A stretch of DNA of 64,000 nucleotides from Bacillota bacterium (lineage in GTDB: Bacteria > Bacillota > SHA-98 > UBA4971). The stretch lies in NCBI GenBank assembly GCA_030024085.1, contig JASEJE010000020.1:129-64128 (forward strand), given 5' to 3'. Positions within the stretch are counted from its first letter, which is position 1. The number at the start of each line of letters is the position of its first letter. The translations under genes were made by a program, and so were the position numbers. Below the pieces are notes generated by a model. It did not search any database. It had not been told where the DNA came from and saw only the letters and a program-made list of their open reading frames with translations. This document shows positions 37,152-50,749 of the stretch, one piece after another.

Positions 37152-38786
37152 CTAGCCTTTAGGCGCCGGACAGGCGGGGATCTGGATGACCTGGCCCACC
37201 TGGAGGTTCTCCGGCTGGATGCCCGGGTTTGCCTGGATTATCGCGGCCACCGTCGTGTTGTACTTTCGCGCCAGGGACCAGAGCGTATCACCCGGCTGGA
37301 TGGTCACCATGACGATCGTCGGCTGCGGACACGGCACCTCCGGCGGCTTCACGGCCACCACGGCGACCACCACGTTGAGCTGCACGGGCTCGGTGACCTT
37401 GGCGAACACGCTCACCAGGACCTTCGCGGTGAACCGCCTGTCTTCGACCACCTCGAAGTCCACGTGCTCGATGGCAACGCGCGTCTCGGCCAGGAAGCCC
37501 TCCTGCGTGCCGGGCACCTCGACCACCTGGGTGAACTTGAGGCGGTGCGACATGTGGTGCACCGGCTGGTCGCCCTCGGGGGTCTGCGCCACGTAAAGCG
37601 TCTGAAGCTCGACAACGCCCTCGACGATGACCTTGCCGTCGATGATCCTGTAAGACGCCTCTTTGACAGATGTGTCGATCCTGAGGACGCGCTCGATGTT
37701 GGGCTTCTCCCTCGGCACCTCCAGGGTCTCCTTGAGGATCGTCTGAACCGTGTCCTCGCCGATGACGTCCTCCACGCGGAGCAGCCTCTTCTCCACGTCC
37801 AGCACAGTGCTCTTGGACGTCACCTCGGTGACGACCTCGAGCTGCCTGACGACAGTCACCTTCGCGGTCAGCTTGAGCACCACGTCCACGCTGACCGTGC
37901 GGAAGTCAAGCTCGCTAAAACTCACCGCCTCGAGCACGAGCCGCACCTGAGCCCGCATGCCCACAGCCGCCCCGGGCACCTCGATGACCTGCGAGAACCG
38001 GAGCTGGGTCGAGAAGAAATGCACCGGCAATCTCGGCAGGTAAGGATCGTGAGGCACCGCCGCGTACAGCACGTCCACGTCGATCAGGCCCTCGGCTACC
38101 ACCTGACCGTCGAGCACCTGGACGTCCGTCAGGCGAGGTTTCGCCTCCGCACTGATGACAGATTCGATGTCCGGTTTCTCCGGCGGCACCGTGAGCCTCC
38201 CGCTGACGAGAGCCTGTGCCTGCGCCTCCCCAACGACATCCTCGACCTTCAGAAGCTCCCTGGCCACCTGCAGGTCTGGCGGGCCGGTGACCTCGGTCAC
38301 CACCTCGAGCTGTTCGGTCTTGGTGACCTTGACAGCGGCTGACAGGACGAGCCGCACGTCCAGAGTGCGCACGTCAACCAGATCGAATGCCACGTCGTGG
38401 ATGTCCACCTCGACAAAAGCGTTCATCGAGGGATCCGTGCCCGGCACCTCGGCGATGACTTCGAAGGATACATCCTGCTCAAGGAGTTGCACCGGCTGGG
38501 TGCCGGCGGCCACCCGTGCCACGTAGAGCACCCGCACCCTGATGGTGCCCTCCACGAGAACTTTGCCCTTTATGAGCTGGAATGAACTTGTGAGGACATC
38601 TGCATCGACGCTGATGATCTTCTCGGCGGTAGGCAGGTTCTCAGGGATCTTGAGCATCTCGCGCAGCACCTTGCGCGCCGTGGTTTCGCCGACGACCTGT
38701 TCGACCTTGAGGAGCTCCTCCTTGAGCTCGACACCCACAGCCATCTCCTCTCCCCCTTTCTCGTGACAGGCATGAAACCAGTACAC
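37152..38786 (-). CDS. multi-repeat DUF3794 protein with C-terminal LysM domain
   Basis: Four DUF3794 repeats plus LysM (IQPGDTLWSLARKYNTTVAAIIQANPGIQ). Stop is 22 nt from the next DUF3794 gene start. Confidence 0.75.
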   Translation of the reverse strand: MYWFHACHEKGGEEMAVGVELKEELLKVEQVVGETTARKVLREMLKIPENLPTAEKIISVDADVLTSSFQLIKGKVLVEGTIRVRVLYVARVAAGTQPVQLLEQDVSFEVIAEVPGTDPSMNAFVEVDIHDVAFDLVDVRTLDVRLVLSAAVKVTKTEQLEVVTEVTGPPDLQVARELLKVEDVVGEAQAQALVSGRLTVPPEKPDIESVISAEAKPRLTDVQVLDGQVVAEGLIDVDVLYAAVPHDPYLPRLPVHFFSTQLRFSQVIEVPGAAVGMRAQVRLVLEAVSFSELDFRTVSVDVVLKLTAKVTVVRQLEVVTEVTSKSTVLDVEKRLLRVEDVIGEDTVQTILKETLEVPREKPNIERVLRIDTSVKEASYRIIDGKVIVEGVVELQTLYVAQTPEGDQPVHHMSHRLKFTQVVEVPGTQEGFLAETRVAIEHVDFEVVEDRRFTAKVLVSVFAKVTEPVQLNVVVAVVAVKPPEVPCPQPTIVMVTIQPGDTLWSLARKYNTTVAAIIQANPGIQPENLQVGQVIQIPACPAPKG

Positions 38787-38789
38787 TCG

Positions 38790-38895
38790 CTTTTCATTTC
38801 TACTATATGCGGGCGACTAACCAAAATGTGCATATATTTCTAAATGCGACGCCACCCAGGCGGCCGCGAGCCGGAAATGGAGCGCACGGGGAGGG
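38790..38895 (-). promoter_or_regulatory. AT-rich promoter-like island upstream of the DUF3794-LysM gene
   Basis: tttcatttctactatatgcgggcgactaaccaaaatgtgcatatatttctaaatgcg is ~40% GC in a ~70% GC genome. Contains CATA...TA-like -10 candidates on the minus strand, compatible with mother-cell sigma-E/sigma-K promoters but not resolvable by eye. Confidence 0.3.
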
Positions 38896-44051: not shown

Positions 44052-45110
44052 TTACCCGTGCCTGGCCCGCCGCGTGCCGGGCAGCCGCAGCCTAGGGCGG
44101 GCGAGGTAGCGCGTGAACGCGGTCGCGGCTTCCCGGAGAGGGGAGATCAGTGCACCCAGGGCCGCGCGGGCTGCGCCGGGCCCCTGCCGGGCGGATTCAC
44201 CCCGGACAGGCGCGTGAGCACTTCCCGGCCTCTCCGTTGCCTCTGCCGCCTCCGTTGCCTCCATTTCCGCCGTTGCTTCTACGGCCTCCATTTCCGCCGC
44301 TGACCGGGCTGCCCCTACCTCCAGCGCCGACGTCGTTGCATCCATTTCCGGCTTTGACTCCGTCGCTTCCGCTGCGCTGTTCGTCCCCGTTGCCCCCTCG
44401 GTCTCCGTCGCCAGCTCCGACGGCGCCGCATCAGCGCTCTGGTCGCCGGAACGCCGCTCCCCCGCCTCGATCGCCGTGATCACTGAAAGCACTACGGTCT
44501 CCAGCACAAGCGCGTCAATGACGACGGTCGCGGTCACGCATATCCTGCCAGGCCCAGCGACGGTCCGCCGCACGCCATCAGGGTCCCTCGGGGCCCGCCA
44601 CTCGTCCGCCTCCCTGGCGTCACATCCATGCTCGGAGCCATCGTCCCCGCAGGCGGAGCGGCCGACGCCCGCCGTGCCAGCCACGCCCGCCGCGATCCAG
44701 GCGCTCTGACATCCCACGCTGAAGCGCCCCTCCACGGACATGCCCCGGCGGAGCGATACATCTTCAATGAGAGTCCGAAGGTCCTCTTCCCAGGAAAGCG
44801 CGCGCACCGGCCTTCCGTCTGACAGGCAGTAAGCCCACACAAGGAGCGTCGCGGATGCGAGGGCCGACCCGTCGAAGACATCCCACGACGGGTCGAGCAC
44901 GTCGATGGTCAGGCCCACGACTTCCCGCACGCCCTCCGGCGCCTCGTGCCACAGGCTGACCGTGACCTCGCGCGCGAGCCTGCACACGACCCGCTCCACG
45001 CGCAGCGTCTCCGTCCTCACGCTGATGCCGCCGAACCGGTCAGACCCGCCCAACCCCCTGCGCCTCCCCGGGCCGAACCCGGCCGTGCGCTGCGCTCCAG
45101 CGCATTGCAT
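44052..45110 (-). CDS. hypothetical protein (Ala/Glu/Thr-rich C-terminus); gene model uncertain
   Basis: Long ORF with no recognised domain. Central part (LWHEAPEGVREVVGLTIDVLDPSWDVFDGSALASATLLVWAYCLSDG) looks protein-like; the ends are low complexity. Confidence 0.3.
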   Translation of the reverse strand: MQCAGAQRTAGFGPGRRRGLGGSDRFGGISVRTETLRVERVVCRLAREVTVSLWHEAPEGVREVVGLTIDVLDPSWDVFDGSALASATLLVWAYCLSDGRPVRALSWEEDLRTLIEDVSLRRGMSVEGRFSVGCQSAWIAAGVAGTAGVGRSACGDDGSEHGCDAREADEWRAPRDPDGVRRTVAGPGRICVTATVVIDALVLETVVLSVITAIEAGERRSGDQSADAAPSELATETEGATGTNSAAEATESKPEMDATTSALEVGAARSAAEMEAVEATAEMEATEAAEATERPGSAHAPVRGESARQGPGAARAALGALISPLREAATAFTRYLARPRLRLPGTRRARHG

Positions 45111-46210: not shown

Positions 46211-46322
46211 GTGTTCACCCCCTCACAACGTGTTAGCCCCCTCGCATTGGAAAGGCAGGTATCATCCCTGATACCTGCCCTGGTTTGTGGCCCGCCGGTC
46301 CCGGCCGCACCGCACTGCAGGG

Positions 46323-48617
46323 CTACGGATCGACGACGACCGGGATCTGATCGAACTGAGTGACCTTCACGTCTATCCTGATGACGACCTTCTCCGTGAA
46401 ACTGCCGGTCGCAGGGTCGAACTCCCAGACGATGTTCTCGATGAACGAGTGGTCCTGCTCGTCCATGCCCTCGCGCACCGGCACGTCGGGGTTGATCGGA
46501 GTGACCTCCACCATCTCGCTGAACGGCAGGTCCTCCGCCAGATGGTGGACGAGATCGTCGGTGCCCACGTAGAAGATCTGCTTGTGCACGACGCCCTGCA
46601 CTATGACCTTGCCGTTCTTCACGATGGAGCCGATCTCGCTGATCCTGGCCTCCACGTCCACGATCTTGGTGGCCGGGAGGGTCTTCGTCTCCTCGATGAG
46701 CTTCTGCTTCGTGCCGTGCCCGACCACGAGGTCGGTCGCGATGACGGTACCGTATGGCTCCACGGCAACAGGTATCTGCTCCATCTCCGTGACCTTCACG
46801 CCAAGGAGCAGGATTATCTTCTGCGTGAGCGTCCCGGTGGCCGGGTCGAACTCGAACACGAGGTTGTCGACGATGGAGTGATCCTGCGAATCCATGCCCT
46901 CCTGCACCGGGAAGTTCGGGTTGAGTGGCGGCACCTCCACGAGGTCACTGAAGGCGATGTCCTCAGCGATGTGGTGAACGAGGTCGTCGGTGCCGACGAA
47001 GAAGATCTGCTTGTGCAGCGTGCCCTGGACGATGACCTTCCCGTTCTTGACGATGTGCTTTATCCTGGATATGCGCGGGATGATCTCCATCACCTTCGTA
47101 GCAGGGATTGTCTTCGTTTCTTCGATGAACTTCTGCTTCGTGGCCTCGCCAACCACCACCGCGGCCTTGATGAACGTGCCGTATGGCGAGAGTGCCACAG
47201 CGATCTGCTCCGTGTCCGTGACCTTTACCTGCAGCCTGAGTACGATCTTCTGGGTTAGAGCGCCGGTCGCAGGGTCGAACTCGAACACGTTGTTCTCGAT
47301 GACCGACATGTCGCGCTGGTTCATGCCCTCGGTGACCGGACGGGCCGGGTCGAGCGGCACCACGTCCACGAGCTCGCTGAAGTCCATATCCTCGGCAAGG
47401 TGGTGCTCCAGGTTATCCGTCCCGATGTAGAAGATCTGCTTGTGGACCGTGCCCTGGACGATGACCTTGCCGTTCTTCACGATGGACCTCACGTTGGTCA
47501 GGACGGGAACGATCTCCACTATCTTGATGGCCGGAACGGTCTTCGTCTCCTCCAGCAGCACCTGCCTCGTGCCGTGGCCGATGACCCTCTCCACCTTGAT
47601 CGTTGCCTTCTGGTCCACGATCTGTGTTATGTCAATCATCTGCGAGCCTCCTTTCAAGCTCCTGCCGGAGCTTTCTGGTGAGCGCCTGAGGAAGGCGGGC
47701 CCCGCCTTCCGCGCGTCCCCCCTTTCCTTGAGTTGTGGTCTATGCTGATCGGACGGGCGTAAACGCCCCTGGGTTTGATCGTTCGTGTGGGCACCGCGCA
47801 AGAACGTAGCGTCCTGCTCCCGACGGACTGCGCCTGAAAGGGCGACCGCGTCGTGGCCTCGCATGCCAGGCGGATGATCCCCCCGGAACTCAGGCAGCGG
47901 TCCAGAGCCGCCTGCAGGCGCGGGCGATGAGTCAGGGTCTGAGATGGCATGCGGGGTGGTGTCGCCACGGACCTCGTCTGGGCCGTGCCCGGTGCTCCCG
48001 ACACAGTGTCGAGAGCCTTCGGCGGCCGGTCGCGCCAGCCTGTCGCTTCGCCATGAGGTACCGGCGGCCAGGAAAAGGTGTCTCCGTTGTCGAGCTGGTA
48101 GGGAATTCCCGGGGTTGCCAGGCATTGCCGGGGCGCCGCCGATGGGTTCGGACTCGAGGGCAGCGGGCGCGCCATGAGGCCAGTCGGCCGGGCCGTCGGC
48201 GCCTGGGCTGACTGGGGAGAGGGTCTTGCCTGCGCCGTCGCGGTGCGCGTTGATCGAGGCAGGCGTGCTGGTACAGGTGGAAGCAGGGCTCGCATCTCGC
48301 GGATAGCGCGGGATGTCCGAGCCGCAGGGGGTGGGCGCGTCGCAGCGCGTCCTTCGCGCTCGCGAGGCATCGCTCGTCGCAACATCGCGGGCCACAGGTA
48401 TCGGCGCAGCCGCAGGAGGTACGTCGCGCCCTGTAAGCGAAGCCGTCCGGCGCCCTCGCCTGCGTAGCGACGTGCCGAGCACAGCCCCCATAACCGCAAG
48501 GGCCACGAAGACGATTATGATGAGCTGCCATCCGACGCCAAATGCCACAGCCGGTCCCTTCTCCCTGGCTTTCTCCCTATATCGTATTGACATCCCTGGC
48601 GAAGTGTGATGGGTCAC
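46323..48617 (-). CDS. DUF3794 protein with three near-identical ~130-aa repeats; N-terminal extent ambiguous
   Basis: Repeats VIGHGTRQVLLEETKTVPAIKIVEI... / VVGEATKQKFIEETKTIPATKVMEI... / VVGHGTKQKLIEETKTLPATKIVDV... Strong internal start MIDITQ at ~47639 with GAAAGGAGG. In-frame upstream ~1 kb encodes a putative TM helix (WQLIIIVFVALAVMGAVLG) plus a Pro/Arg/Ala-rich region. Confidence 0.7.
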   Translation of the reverse strand: MTHHTSPGMSIRYREKAREKGPAVAFGVGWQLIIIVFVALAVMGAVLGTSLRRRGRRTASLTGRDVPPAAAPIPVARDVATSDASRARRTRCDAPTPCGSDIPRYPRDASPASTCTSTPASINAHRDGAGKTLSPVSPGADGPADWPHGAPAALESEPIGGAPAMPGNPGNSLPARQRRHLFLAAGTSWRSDRLARPAAEGSRHCVGSTGHGPDEVRGDTTPHAISDPDSSPAPAGGSGPLPEFRGDHPPGMRGHDAVALSGAVRREQDATFLRGAHTNDQTQGRLRPSDQHRPQLKERGDARKAGPAFLRRSPESSGRSLKGGSQMIDITQIVDQKATIKVERVIGHGTRQVLLEETKTVPAIKIVEIVPVLTNVRSIVKNGKVIVQGTVHKQIFYIGTDNLEHHLAEDMDFSELVDVVPLDPARPVTEGMNQRDMSVIENNVFEFDPATGALTQKIVLRLQVKVTDTEQIAVALSPYGTFIKAAVVVGEATKQKFIEETKTIPATKVMEIIPRISRIKHIVKNGKVIVQGTLHKQIFFVGTDDLVHHIAEDIAFSDLVEVPPLNPNFPVQEGMDSQDHSIVDNLVFEFDPATGTLTQKIILLLGVKVTEMEQIPVAVEPYGTVIATDLVVGHGTKQKLIEETKTLPATKIVDVEARISEIGSIVKNGKVIVQGVVHKQIFYVGTDDLVHHLAEDLPFSEMVEVTPINPDVPVREGMDEQDHSFIENIVWEFDPATGSFTEKVVIRIDVKVTQFDQIPVVVDP

Positions 48618-50749
48618 GGATTGAAGGTCGCTCCCGTGACAACCGACACCGGGACGGGGCCGATCGTCCCGTCCACGATTCTCACGAGCGGGATCGTCTG
48701 CCGGGTGACCGTGGCTACCCTGGGGCCGGTGAGATCGGTGACGATGTCAAGCGGGCGCCGCGTCACGGTCCCGTCTTCCACAACGTCGACCAGGAACCTC
48801 TCCCTGGTCACAATGACGCCCGGCCCGATCACGTTCGTGACGACCTGGTACACCTGCTCCCTAGCGCAGCTCACGGTGACCAGGAGGATCACAAGCTGGT
48901 GAAAGACCGTGCCATTCTGGACTATCTTGACGATGACGTTCTCCACACGGGCGGAGGCGGAGATGGATGCGCCAGGCACGAGACCAGGGCAGTCCACGAG
49001 TGCGCTGAAGGGAAGCGTCTCCTCGACGTGATGGACGATGTCGTCGGTGCCGACGAAGAATACCTGCTTTATCACGACGCCCTCCACAAGGACGCTCTCT
49101 CCCATGACGCTGGCAGTAACGCCCTCGACGACGGTATCGACCGAACGTACCTTGATTGCGGGCACAGGCGCCGGGATAGTCCCCTCCAGGAGCAGCTGCT
49201 TCTCAGCCTGCGCCATCTCCGTCACCAGAATCCTCGCGAACTCGATGGTGATCGGGAGGACCCGCGTGATTATCTTCTCAACCAGAATCTGCGCGGCGCC
49301 CTCACCGATCACCTGCTGCACTTTCACCAGAAGGCCGTACGGTTCGACCGCAACGGGGATCTGGACCGTCTCCGTGACGGTCACGAAAATGTCGGCGATG
49401 ACTTTCTCCGAGATGTTCGTCCCCGTCTGGGCCGGGTCGAACACGACCGCCCGGACCTCGGGTCTCACGAACACGTTGAGGCCCGGCCTTGCGCCCGGCA
49501 CCTCCGCGAAATCACTGAATGGGATGGTGAAGGTCTCGGTAGCCTGCGTGCCCGCTGCGGTCACGTAGGTCACATCCTTGACTATGGCTCCCTGTATGAT
49601 CACTTTGTCCTCGATGGGGCGGGCCCGCACTCCATCGACCCGGGCAGTGATCCCGACGAGGCCCGTAGCCGGCTGTGAAAGGGTCACCGTTGTCTCCTCG
49701 AGTACCTCGGTTGAACCCTGCCCCAGCACGCGCTCTGTCTTGATGAGGGGACCTTCACCCATCGCCAGGACTATCTCGACGGTCTCCGTGACCTTCACAA
49801 AGACGTCGAGGAGCACCTCCTGGGCCACGAGGGTGCCCGTGGGGTCGAGGGAGAACGCCACGTCCCTGACATCCGGGTGCACCTGCACGTTCATCCCCGG
49901 CAGTGCCCCAGGGATGGCAGCGGTCACGGAGAAGTGCGCCACCACCCCCTGGTGGCGGTTCGAGCCGTCGGTGGCCACAAAGAATATCTGCTTCAGGATA
50001 TTGCCGCTCACCACGACCTCGCCAGGGTTCACCGTGATACCGGTGATCTCGGGCGTGGCGCGTATTTCCGTCACCTTCGTGGCCGGCACATCGAGCGTCA
50101 CCGTGCCGGTCTCCAGCACCTGTTCGATGGTCTCACCGACGACTGCTTCGGTGATCACCGGCGTGCCATACGGGTCCTCAGCGACGTGGATCTGGACGAA
50201 GTCGGTGACCACCACGTCCACATCGACGATCACCTTCTGGAAGATCTGGTTTCCGTCGGGGCTGAGCACCGCTATGACATTGAAGATGCTCGGATGCACC
50301 TGGACAAGCATCCCGGGCCTGGCGCCCGGGACGTCCACGAGGGCGGAGAAACGCATCTCTTCCGGGAAGTGGTGGACGATGTTGTCCTCGCCCACGAAGA
50401 AAACCTGCTTTGCAATGATGCCCTGGACTATCACCTTGTCGGGGATCACTTCAACGCCGACGCTTCTGACATCGGCGCGGATCTCCTTTATCTTGAGGGC
50501 TCTCATCGGCAGGGTGAATTGCACCTCGGGGCTGTTCGAAGTCCTCCCTGCGCTCGTCATGTGCTCGCCTCCCCCGGGCCTCCGCTCCGCTGCATGGATC
50601 GCACGCAGAGTGAGGGTTCGTTTCGCAAAGTCGGAGCATTTCTCCGTCCTCACCAGGCGCTCTGCTAAGTTCGGCAGCCTTACACCATATTTTATGAACC
50701 CGCGCCGTCCCTTGCCATCAGACTCCTGATACTGCCCTGTTACCTGCAT
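48614..50749 (-). CDS. multi-repeat DUF3794 protein (~5 repeats)
   Basis: Probable start MRALKIKEIRADV (~50506). Repeats such as VIVQGIIAKQVFFVGEDNIVHHFPEEMRFSALVDVPGARPGM. Stop overlaps the next DUF3794 ORF start. Confidence 0.7.
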   Translation of the reverse strand: MQVTGQYQESDGKGRRGFIKYGVRLPNLAERLVRTEKCSDFAKRTLTLRAIHAAERRPGGGEHMTSAGRTSNSPEVQFTLPMRALKIKEIRADVRSVGVEVIPDKVIVQGIIAKQVFFVGEDNIVHHFPEEMRFSALVDVPGARPGMLVQVHPSIFNVIAVLSPDGNQIFQKVIVDVDVVVTDFVQIHVAEDPYGTPVITEAVVGETIEQVLETGTVTLDVPATKVTEIRATPEITGITVNPGEVVVSGNILKQIFFVATDGSNRHQGVVAHFSVTAAIPGALPGMNVQVHPDVRDVAFSLDPTGTLVAQEVLLDVFVKVTETVEIVLAMGEGPLIKTERVLGQGSTEVLEETTVTLSQPATGLVGITARVDGVRARPIEDKVIIQGAIVKDVTYVTAAGTQATETFTIPFSDFAEVPGARPGLNVFVRPEVRAVVFDPAQTGTNISEKVIADIFVTVTETVQIPVAVEPYGLLVKVQQVIGEGAAQILVEKIITRVLPITIEFARILVTEMAQAEKQLLLEGTIPAPVPAIKVRSVDTVVEGVTASVMGESVLVEGVVIKQVFFVGTDDIVHHVEETLPFSALVDCPGLVPGASISASARVENVIVKIVQNGTVFHQLVILLVTVSCAREQVYQVVTNVIGPGVIVTRERFLVDVVEDGTVTRRPLDIVTDLTGPRVATVTRQTIPLVRIVDGTIGPVPVSVVTGATFNP

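Follow-up and report, generated by a model that had tools for sequence, protein, structure and literature searches.

Introduction

Proteins of the SPOCS group (SpoVID-CotE-SipL, DUF3794) have morphogenetic or structural roles in the spore envelope (bioRxiv 10.64898/2026.09.03.749163; PMC11513918). The best-matching described architecture is that of Clostridioides difficile SipL, with three tandem DUF3794 domains for which a pseudo-threefold 'tripod' is predicted (bioRxiv 10.64898/2026.09.03.749163). A second point of reference is SafA, for which internal initiation gives a shorter product, C30, that is without the N-terminal localisation signal and whose recruitment goes through SafA-FL, the form of full length (PMC6490927). 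A 12-residue stretch of SafA (region A) binds to SpoVID at its SPOCS (N) domain (PMC6282716). SPOCS proteins increasingly look like shared building blocks of spore coats and exosporia, and their fixation to the forespore surface beyond the Bacillus SpoVM-SpoIVA-SpoVID paradigm is poorly known. The literature that we found mentioning DUF3794 or SPOCS describes no transmembrane-anchored form, no fused or split anchor and no internal start.

The present study concerns a SPOCS gene on the minus strand of a 64,000-nucleotide stretch of DNA (the window; contig JASEJE010000020.1, positions 129 to 64,128) from an uncultured Bacillota metagenome-assembled genome (MAG; GCA_030024085.1). Its stop-to-stop open reading frame (ORF), listed as 46323..48617 and 764 aa long, opens with a GTG codon overlapping the TGA of the upstream gene, as reported in a first-pass annotation of the DNA, which took the ~1 kb ahead of the SPOCS domain to be either part of a membrane-anchored long isoform or an untranslated spacer. 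The comparative data favour the long isoform, the region being free of in-frame stops in 16/16 sequences, and speak against the spacer. Based on these data we propose, with a probability of about 0.62, that 48548..46323 is one gene for a membrane-tethered spore-envelope SPOCS protein with an anchored long form and an internally initiated free form. The features of this gene are as follows.

48580..48608, minus strand: promoter-like motif CACACTT-N13-AATACGATA (orthologue alignment, pattern scan)
48546..48565, minus strand: Shine-Dalgarno-like GGGAGAAGGGA, 6-nt spacer and GTG 48548-48546, probable start of the long form (741 aa, M-AFGVGWQL...)
48468..48542, minus strand: N-terminal transmembrane (TM) helix, long-form residues 3-27 (Kyte-Doolittle 2.6 over 19 aa; AlphaFold2; codon log-odds +0.57)
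48447..48464, minus strand: Arg cluster RRRGRR, immediately after the TM helix
47640..48467, minus strand: hypervariable disordered linker of ~276 aa (open frame; ratio of non-synonymous to synonymous substitution rates, dN/dS; predicted local distance difference test, pLDDT)
48042..48089, minus strand: short linear motif QRRHLFLAAGTSWRSD, consensus [RK]-N-L-x-L-x(3-4)-S-W, long-form residues ~154-169 (orthologue alignment)
47637..47655, minus strand: internal Shine-Dalgarno (SD) sequence GAAAGGAGG (47655-47647), 7-nt spacer and ATG 47639-47637, start of the 438-aa anchor-free form
47181..47609, minus strand: SPOCS repeat 1 (Pfam, repeat alignment, AlphaFold2 model)
46752..47180, minus strand: SPOCS repeat 2 (Pfam, repeat alignment, AlphaFold2 model)
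46323..46751, minus strand: SPOCS repeat 3 with the stop codon (Pfam, repeat alignment, AlphaFold2 model)

Comparative evidence for a translated long form

The C-terminal 438 residues contain three stretches assigned to the Pfam family SipL/SPOCS (PF12673, formerly DUF3794) at 83 bits, against a gathering cut-off of 23.6, and all 458 homologues of the protein recovered by database search carry PF12673. The N-terminal 326 residues of the 764-aa ORF had no Pfam match and no LysM. Upstream of ATG 47639 the frame stays open for 978 nt, in line with the ~1 kb given in the first-pass annotation, which had also recognised a plausible TM anchor and, behind it, a Pro/Arg/Ala-rich disordered stretch; both are borne out here by the helix listed above and by a linker rich in Ala/Arg/Pro/Gly/Ser. 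No internal repeats were found in this 1-kb region, and it gave no Rfam match at the gathering score or at E≤1 and no tRNA.

Comparison with orthologues, which had been put forward as a check, supports the long form. A total of 19 related loci were retrieved, 15 of which contain an orthologue together with its upstream region, giving 16 sequences with the window (orthologue GC content 43-66%). In the orthologues the frame ahead of the SPOCS domain is open as far back as a hydrophobic segment. From the TM segment to the internal ATG, none of the 16 sequences has an in-frame stop, whereas the remaining five frames each contain 1-33 stops in every sequence, with 5-16 expected per frame from base composition. 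The chance of such an open frame ranges from 1e-2 to 1e-7 per sequence and is lowest in the genomes of 43-52% GC. Fourteen different linker lengths (155-370 codons) were observed, all in frame, and the net indels of close pairs are multiples of 3.

Three parts of the linker region are conserved exceptions to its variability: the N-terminal helix with its Arg cluster, the [RK]-N-L-x-L-x(3-4)-S-W motif, and the ~25 codons that immediately precede the internal ATG. All orthologues keep G(L)WQ..I..A(L)A(V)LG in the TM segment and RRRR or a similar cluster after it, and the N-terminal stub is without charge. The linker motif is present in 15/16 orthologues, with synonymous codons varying (Leu CTG/CTC/CTT/CTA/TTA/TTG; Asn AAC/AAT) and Trp invariant. 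The lack of stops, the in-frame indels and the conservation of TM segment and motif despite synonymous codon changes together give strong support, from sequence comparison, to translation of a membrane-anchored long form.

In the AlphaFold2 model of the long form, residues 3-27 are a helix, residues 28-303 have pLDDT <50 and the domain exceeds 90. Read from the sequence, the N-terminus departs from a Sec signal peptide (positively charged n-region, 10-15-residue h-region, AxA cleavage site) in having an uncharged stub, a hydrophobic helix of ~25 residues and an Arg cluster on the C-terminal side of the helix. Public gene models for the family alternate between 416-438 aa and 600-720 aa, the short ones omitting the TM anchor; among the 120 best database clusters, at least 25, from both subfamilies, are annotated with a TM-bearing extension, and many others have short gene models.

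Start of the long form and promoter-like motif

The start of the protein had been placed at 'MSIRYRE' in the first-pass annotation, a stretch that proved to be a promoter-like element conserved at the nucleotide level. Upstream of the helix, 15 orthologues share two unvarying nucleotide blocks, CATCACAyTT and AATAsGATATAGrGA. Close relatives do not read through them in one common frame, and in-frame stops are found there; because the nucleotides are conserved and the frame is not, we regard this stretch as non-coding. Both the ATG of 'MSIRY' and GTG 48617 were rejected as starts, the frame there not being conserved and the ATG being missing in the close orthologues L002, L003 and L013. The homologous start is GTG 48548, which is conserved in all 6 other high-GC orthologues, has ATG in the same place in L005, and is represented in the low-GC clade (L006-L012, L018) by an ATG a few nucleotides away. 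A purine-rich SD sequence (AGGGGGAC or AAGGGAC) lies 6-9 nt before this ATG/GTG start in all of these orthologues. The long form thus most likely begins at GTG 48548 and comprises 741 aa.

The pattern CACAYTT-N12-15-MATANNNTA has 2 matches in the window against 0.00 expected, the second standing directly upstream of a sipL-like gene. Most orthologous loci likewise contain it twice, the other copy lying 4-11 kb downstream; in L007, the one locus inspected for it, that copy stands directly upstream of the sipL orthologue. The B. subtilis sigmaK consensus described by Helmann & Moran and Eichenberger et al. is reportedly AC-N17-CATANNNTA, and that of sigmaE kmATAww-N14-CATACAnT. The motif at 48580..48608 is in keeping with these patterns, with one mismatch to AC-N17-CATANNNTA, and we presume from this likeness that it belongs to the mother-cell sigmaE/sigmaK promoter type.

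A conserved internal start and its fused, split and anchor-less relatives

The SD sequence and ATG near 47639 were found as the first-pass annotation had described them, and are located exactly at the boundary between tether and domain. The element A(A/G)GGAGGCTC-N3-ATG does not vary in 15/16 orthologues, even at the synonymous sites of its Lys/Glu, Gly and Gly codons. A subfamily of 36-40% identity has the same architecture of TM helix, acidic linker and then 'GG..M-DPL'. Hydrogenispora ethanolica and two metagenomic loci have the homologous anchor as a separate ORF of 67-87 aa, closed by several stops 36-93 nt before the SD sequence and ATG. These split loci are L020, L022 and L023; two others, L021 and L024, have no anchor ORF at all. 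The anchor micro-ORFs are in the same frame as the SPOCS gene in all three split loci:

L020, 3704-3907: TM micro-ORF
L022, 1201-1464: TM micro-ORF
L023, 1207-1452: TM micro-ORF

The split micro-proteins and the fused N-termini have in common the motif (C/L)T.W(L/F).(R/K).H at the end of the TM segment, and this motif together with the shared frame suggests fission or fusion through gain or loss, respectively, of stop codons. Since the SD sequence and ATG are the sole possible start in both the split and the anchor-less loci, and are unchanged where the anchor is fused, they appear to be a working start in the relatives.

The last 75 nt of the linker contain two hairpins on the minus strand, at 47690-47710 (GGAAGGCGGG/CCCGCCTTCC) and at 47656-47673, the latter (AAGCTCC-ggca-GGAGCTT) immediately 5' of the internal SD sequence. 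Both are strong in the high-GC clade, and the changes in L005 are apparently compensatory. Their 3' arms resemble an anti-SD sequence, so that the hairpins could modulate internal initiation. A conserved RNA structure ahead of the SD sequence is not claimed, RNAalifold giving -2.6 kcal/mol and shuffle z-scores lying mostly between -1.9 and +1.2.

Three SPOCS repeats of ancient origin

The SPOCS fold is an all-beta barrel of two three-stranded sheets, with a tripod predicted for three copies. The AlphaFold2 model of the 438-aa domain, made with 67 homologues, is confident and all-beta, with a pLDDT of 93.9 and a predicted template modelling score (pTM) of 0.75. The domain contains no cysteine. 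The first-pass annotation was correct in recognising three DUF3794 repeats, and all three peptides that it quoted are present. It had called the repeats near-identical and 130 aa long; the period is 143 aa (429 nt; 71% matches in Tandem Repeats Finder) and pairwise identity is 59-64% at the amino acid level and 69-71% at the nucleotide level. Exactly three repeats, with a mutual identity of 45-67%, were present in 13/13 family members tested.

From this similarity a recent intragenic triplication had been concluded, which would make the gene a hot spot of copy-number change. The repeats are indeed more alike than they are like those of the neighbouring paralogue (32-43% identity), and a positional signal among repeats is no longer detectable in the distant subfamily, which would also fit concerted evolution. 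A recent event is nevertheless scarcely credible. R1, R2 and R3 match the same-position repeats of P0013, an orthologue of 74% identity, at 73-75%, that is, better than they match their sister repeats; and the three-repeat layout recurs throughout the family. For these two reasons the triplication is judged on sequence grounds to be ancient, family-wide and structural. With nucleotide identity as given above and a longest exact run in common of only 18-26 nt, the proposed substrate for copy-number variation found no support, and the repeats are not a likely copy-number hot spot.

Weighing of alternative explanations

Several observations weigh against a tethered protein made in two forms. The nearest database relative, P0001 (NCBI; 96% identical), is annotated as the 438-aa short form, and the linker in the window has neither codon bias nor periodicity in GC content at the third codon position (GC3). 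Against its closest relatives, dN/dS is 0.02-0.07 for the domain and 0.4-0.73 for the linker, and linker composition tracks genomic GC, with a net charge of +11 in the window and of -16 to -38 in most members of the low-GC clade. Among solved structures, the domain has no sequence match in the PDB and its predicted structure no Foldseek match (best E 0.019, TM <0.13). The assignment of the promoter-like motif to sigmaE/sigmaK is based on the B. subtilis consensus, and use of the internal start in the fused genes, which would give a soluble 438-aa form, is likely on grounds of its conservation. Some of these points would favour a reading in which only the short form is made, the 1 kb being an untranslated leader with a frame left open by its high GC content. 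GC at codon positions 1/2/3 is 0.60/0.30/0.89 in the domain and a flat 0.71/0.68/0.70 in the linker, and with 12 genes of the window as training set, codon usage gives log-odds of +0.83 in the domain, +0.57 in the 84-nt TM segment and +0.03 in the linker. The chance of an open frame is ~6e-3 for the window linker alone, and frame +1 has just one stop. Taken alone the linker looks non-coding, and the orthologue of 96% identity is therefore annotated as 438 aa. The GC3 and codon-periodicity check proposed in the first-pass annotation hence points the wrong way, since comparative data override such window-only tests. The short-form reading is very improbable and already contradicted by those data: the frame is open even in the genomes of 43-52% GC, where 9-16 stops are expected (chance 1e-4 to 1e-7 each), indels are in frame, the linker motif is conserved in the manner of a protein, and a conserved SD sequence and start as well as the promoter motif lie ahead of the TM segment. 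Substitutions in the linker are evenly distributed across codon positions. Its open frame and in-frame indels, found together with near-neutral dN/dS and a shifting composition, indicate that it is selected for translatability and hardly for sequence, which is the behaviour of a disordered spacer; as neither composition nor net charge is conserved, the peptide sequence of most of the tether appears to be of no importance. Neither GC3 plots nor gene calling by composition works on near-neutral disordered tethers of this kind.

A different objection grants the long form and denies the short one, the internal SD sequence and ATG being a relic of an ancestral stand-alone gene, or a mere in-frame Gly-Gly...Met, that goes unused in fused genes. 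We consider this possible, though doubtful. The split and anchor-less arrangements point to the SD sequence as the ancestral start, so a relic is conceivable, and minimum free energy folds partly pair the SD region in the high-GC clade. A relic should, however, decay in a near-neutral linker, and instead 11 nt are invariant in 15/16 orthologues, synonymous positions included, and the SD sequence and ATG recur in the fused subfamily of 36-40% identity. A near-consensus SD sequence at 7-nt spacing from an ATG is moreover expected to initiate translation. It might also be argued that upstream translation merely keeps ribosomes on the mRNA, through anti-polarity or coupling to the SPOCS cistron, and that the anchored fusion has no role; the near-neutral bulk of the linker would suit this, and the end of the split micro-ORF just 36-93 nt before the SPOCS start is compatible with coupling. 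This is improbable, given that conservation at the protein level extends to the TM helix, to the Arg cluster and to the motif in mid-linker, that the split loci retain TM micro-ORFs homologous to the anchor and sharing its terminal motif, and that the fused gene has no stop codon, so that the fusion protein would be produced anyway.

Proposed model

We therefore return to the tethered protein with two forms, for which the following scheme may be suggested. Transcription would start from the conserved sigmaE/K-like promoter that lies in the 66 nt between the upstream SPOCS paralogue and the gene. The long product of 741 aa would consist of a 7-residue stub, the TM helix with its Arg cluster, a disordered tether of ~276 residues, evolving near-neutrally apart from the short motif [RK]NLxLx3-4SW, and the three tandem SPOCS repeats. 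By the positive-inside rule, the uncharged stub and the Arg cluster after the helix suggest an N-out/C-in topology, which would put tether and tripod in the mother-cell cytoplasm, the site of coat protein assembly. The long form would then hold the SPOCS tripod at a membrane, presumably the outer one of the forespore, and the internal SD sequence and ATG would supply soluble 438-aa tripods co-assembling on the anchored ones, by analogy with SafA-FL/C30. The conserved linker motif is possibly a docking site, comparable to the SafA region that binds SpoVID.

A wider generalisation is offered as speculation that we hold to be rather unlikely in its entirety. Bacillota resembling Hydrogenispora, Capillibacterium and Thermaerobacter might share a hitherto unrecognised two-part module for spore-envelope assembly, made up of a single-pass membrane anchor and a triple-SPOCS tripod and encoded either by two genes or by one in which the hypervariable tether joins them; when fused, anchored and free tripods would be made from one mRNA. 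The tether (155-370 aa) would act as an entropic spacer setting how far the SPOCS layer lies from the outer forespore membrane, and the linker motif would recruit SPOCS partners as SafA region A does with SpoVID.

Genomic neighbourhood

Features outside the gene are the following.

48614..50749, minus strand: SPOCS paralogue gene, directly upstream of the gene under study (Pfam)
37152..38786, minus strand: sipL-like gene with three SPOCS domains and a C-terminal LysM (Pfam), 8 kb away
38801-38830, minus strand: second promoter-like copy CACATTT-N14-CATATAGTA, directly upstream of the sipL-like gene
46254..46279, minus strand: palindromic GC-rich hairpin (perfect 11 bp) followed by TTT, between the stop codon and the next GT4 gene; a consensus match only

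The pair formed by the gene and its upstream SPOCS paralogue is flanked by GT4 glycosyltransferase genes identified with Pfam, and farther neighbours in the window encode sugar-nucleotide enzymes, a GH18+LysM+peptidoglycan-binding protein, GT2/GT4 enzymes, a CAP-domain protein and a G5/3D protein. By gene content, the neighbourhood is a spore-envelope and glycan gene region. A scan for sigma-70 promoters and terminators at the gene returned weak consensus matches only, and the hairpin at 46254..46279 is a possible weak terminator or attenuator.

The upstream paralogue is listed as 711 aa from ATG 50749. GC3 is weak across 50630-50749, and its orthologues P0034 and P0065 begin near '...LPMRAI'; its true start is probably the in-frame 'PGGGEHM' (ATG 50560-50558), giving ~648 aa. 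Downstream of a GT4 gene, 44052-45110 on the minus strand is an Ala/Glu/Thr-rich ORF of 352 aa with coding-type codon usage (+0.31), 9-bp tandem repeats at 44232-44276 and no Pfam match, possibly a further envelope protein.

The DNA of the window is ~96% identical to a Bacillota MAG contig (L001), and the named, more distant relatives are Thermaerobacter, Capillibacterium and Hydrogenispora. One locus (L003, JBLNCC010000069.1) belongs by its label to a Betaproteobacteria MAG and has this Bacillota locus at 95% amino acid identity, which indicates binning contamination. Another (L019, NZ_JBJYKD010000034.1) is labelled Thermoanaerobacterium sp. and has a contig GC of 50%, a value that seems odd for that genus.

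Comparison with known spore-envelope proteins

The protein resembles SipL (CD3567 of C. difficile) in having three tandem DUF3794/SPOCS domains in one chain, a domain without cysteines, probable mother-cell expression and a spore-envelope gene neighbourhood. It differs from SipL, which has a C-terminal LysM, in having an N-terminal TM helix and a long disordered tether. It was rejected as the SipL orthologue, as it has no LysM match and the SipL architecture is found in gene 37152-38786. SpoVID and CotE of B. subtilis belong to the same domain superfamily and share the presumed role of organising spore-envelope layers. They have one SPOCS domain per chain, CotE being predicted to trimerise, in contrast to three here, and they reach the outer forespore membrane indirectly via SpoIVA and SpoVM, whereas the present protein has its own TM helix. 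CsxA/CsxC and CdeC of the exosporium or parasporal lattice share the SPOCS fold, self-assembling layers and a link to glycosylated surface layers (bioRxiv 10.64898/2026.09.03.749163), but are cysteine-rich (14-24 Cys) and single-domain. With three domains and 0 Cys in 438 residues, the protein was rejected as a member of the cysteine-rich SPOCS lattice proteins.

The analysis resolves an annotation ambiguity and shows the structure of the gene, its conservation and the selection on its open frame, from which function and dual translation are inferred. A tripod with its own membrane anchor, a natural polymorphism of fused and split genes and a conserved second start suggest a direct route of anchoring. 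The closest parallel for the use of two starts is SafA-FL/C30 of the B. subtilis inner-coat hub, where one mRNA has two in-frame starts and only the N-terminus of the long form has the localisation determinant; the present gene has the same layout, with an in-frame internal SD sequence and start downstream of its presumed determinant. Both proteins have much disordered sequence, and the short linear motif of SafA (region A) binds the SPOCS domain of SpoVID. Homology to SafA (LysM, region A, PYYH) was not found, the N-terminal part having no LysM or other Pfam match. SafA owes its localisation to LysM and region A and not to a TM helix, it has no SPOCS in its C-terminal part, and its two products have been demonstrated experimentally, those of the present gene being deduced. 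If the proposal is correct, the SafA-type strategy of pairing an anchored isoform with a free one would find a second example in this gene.

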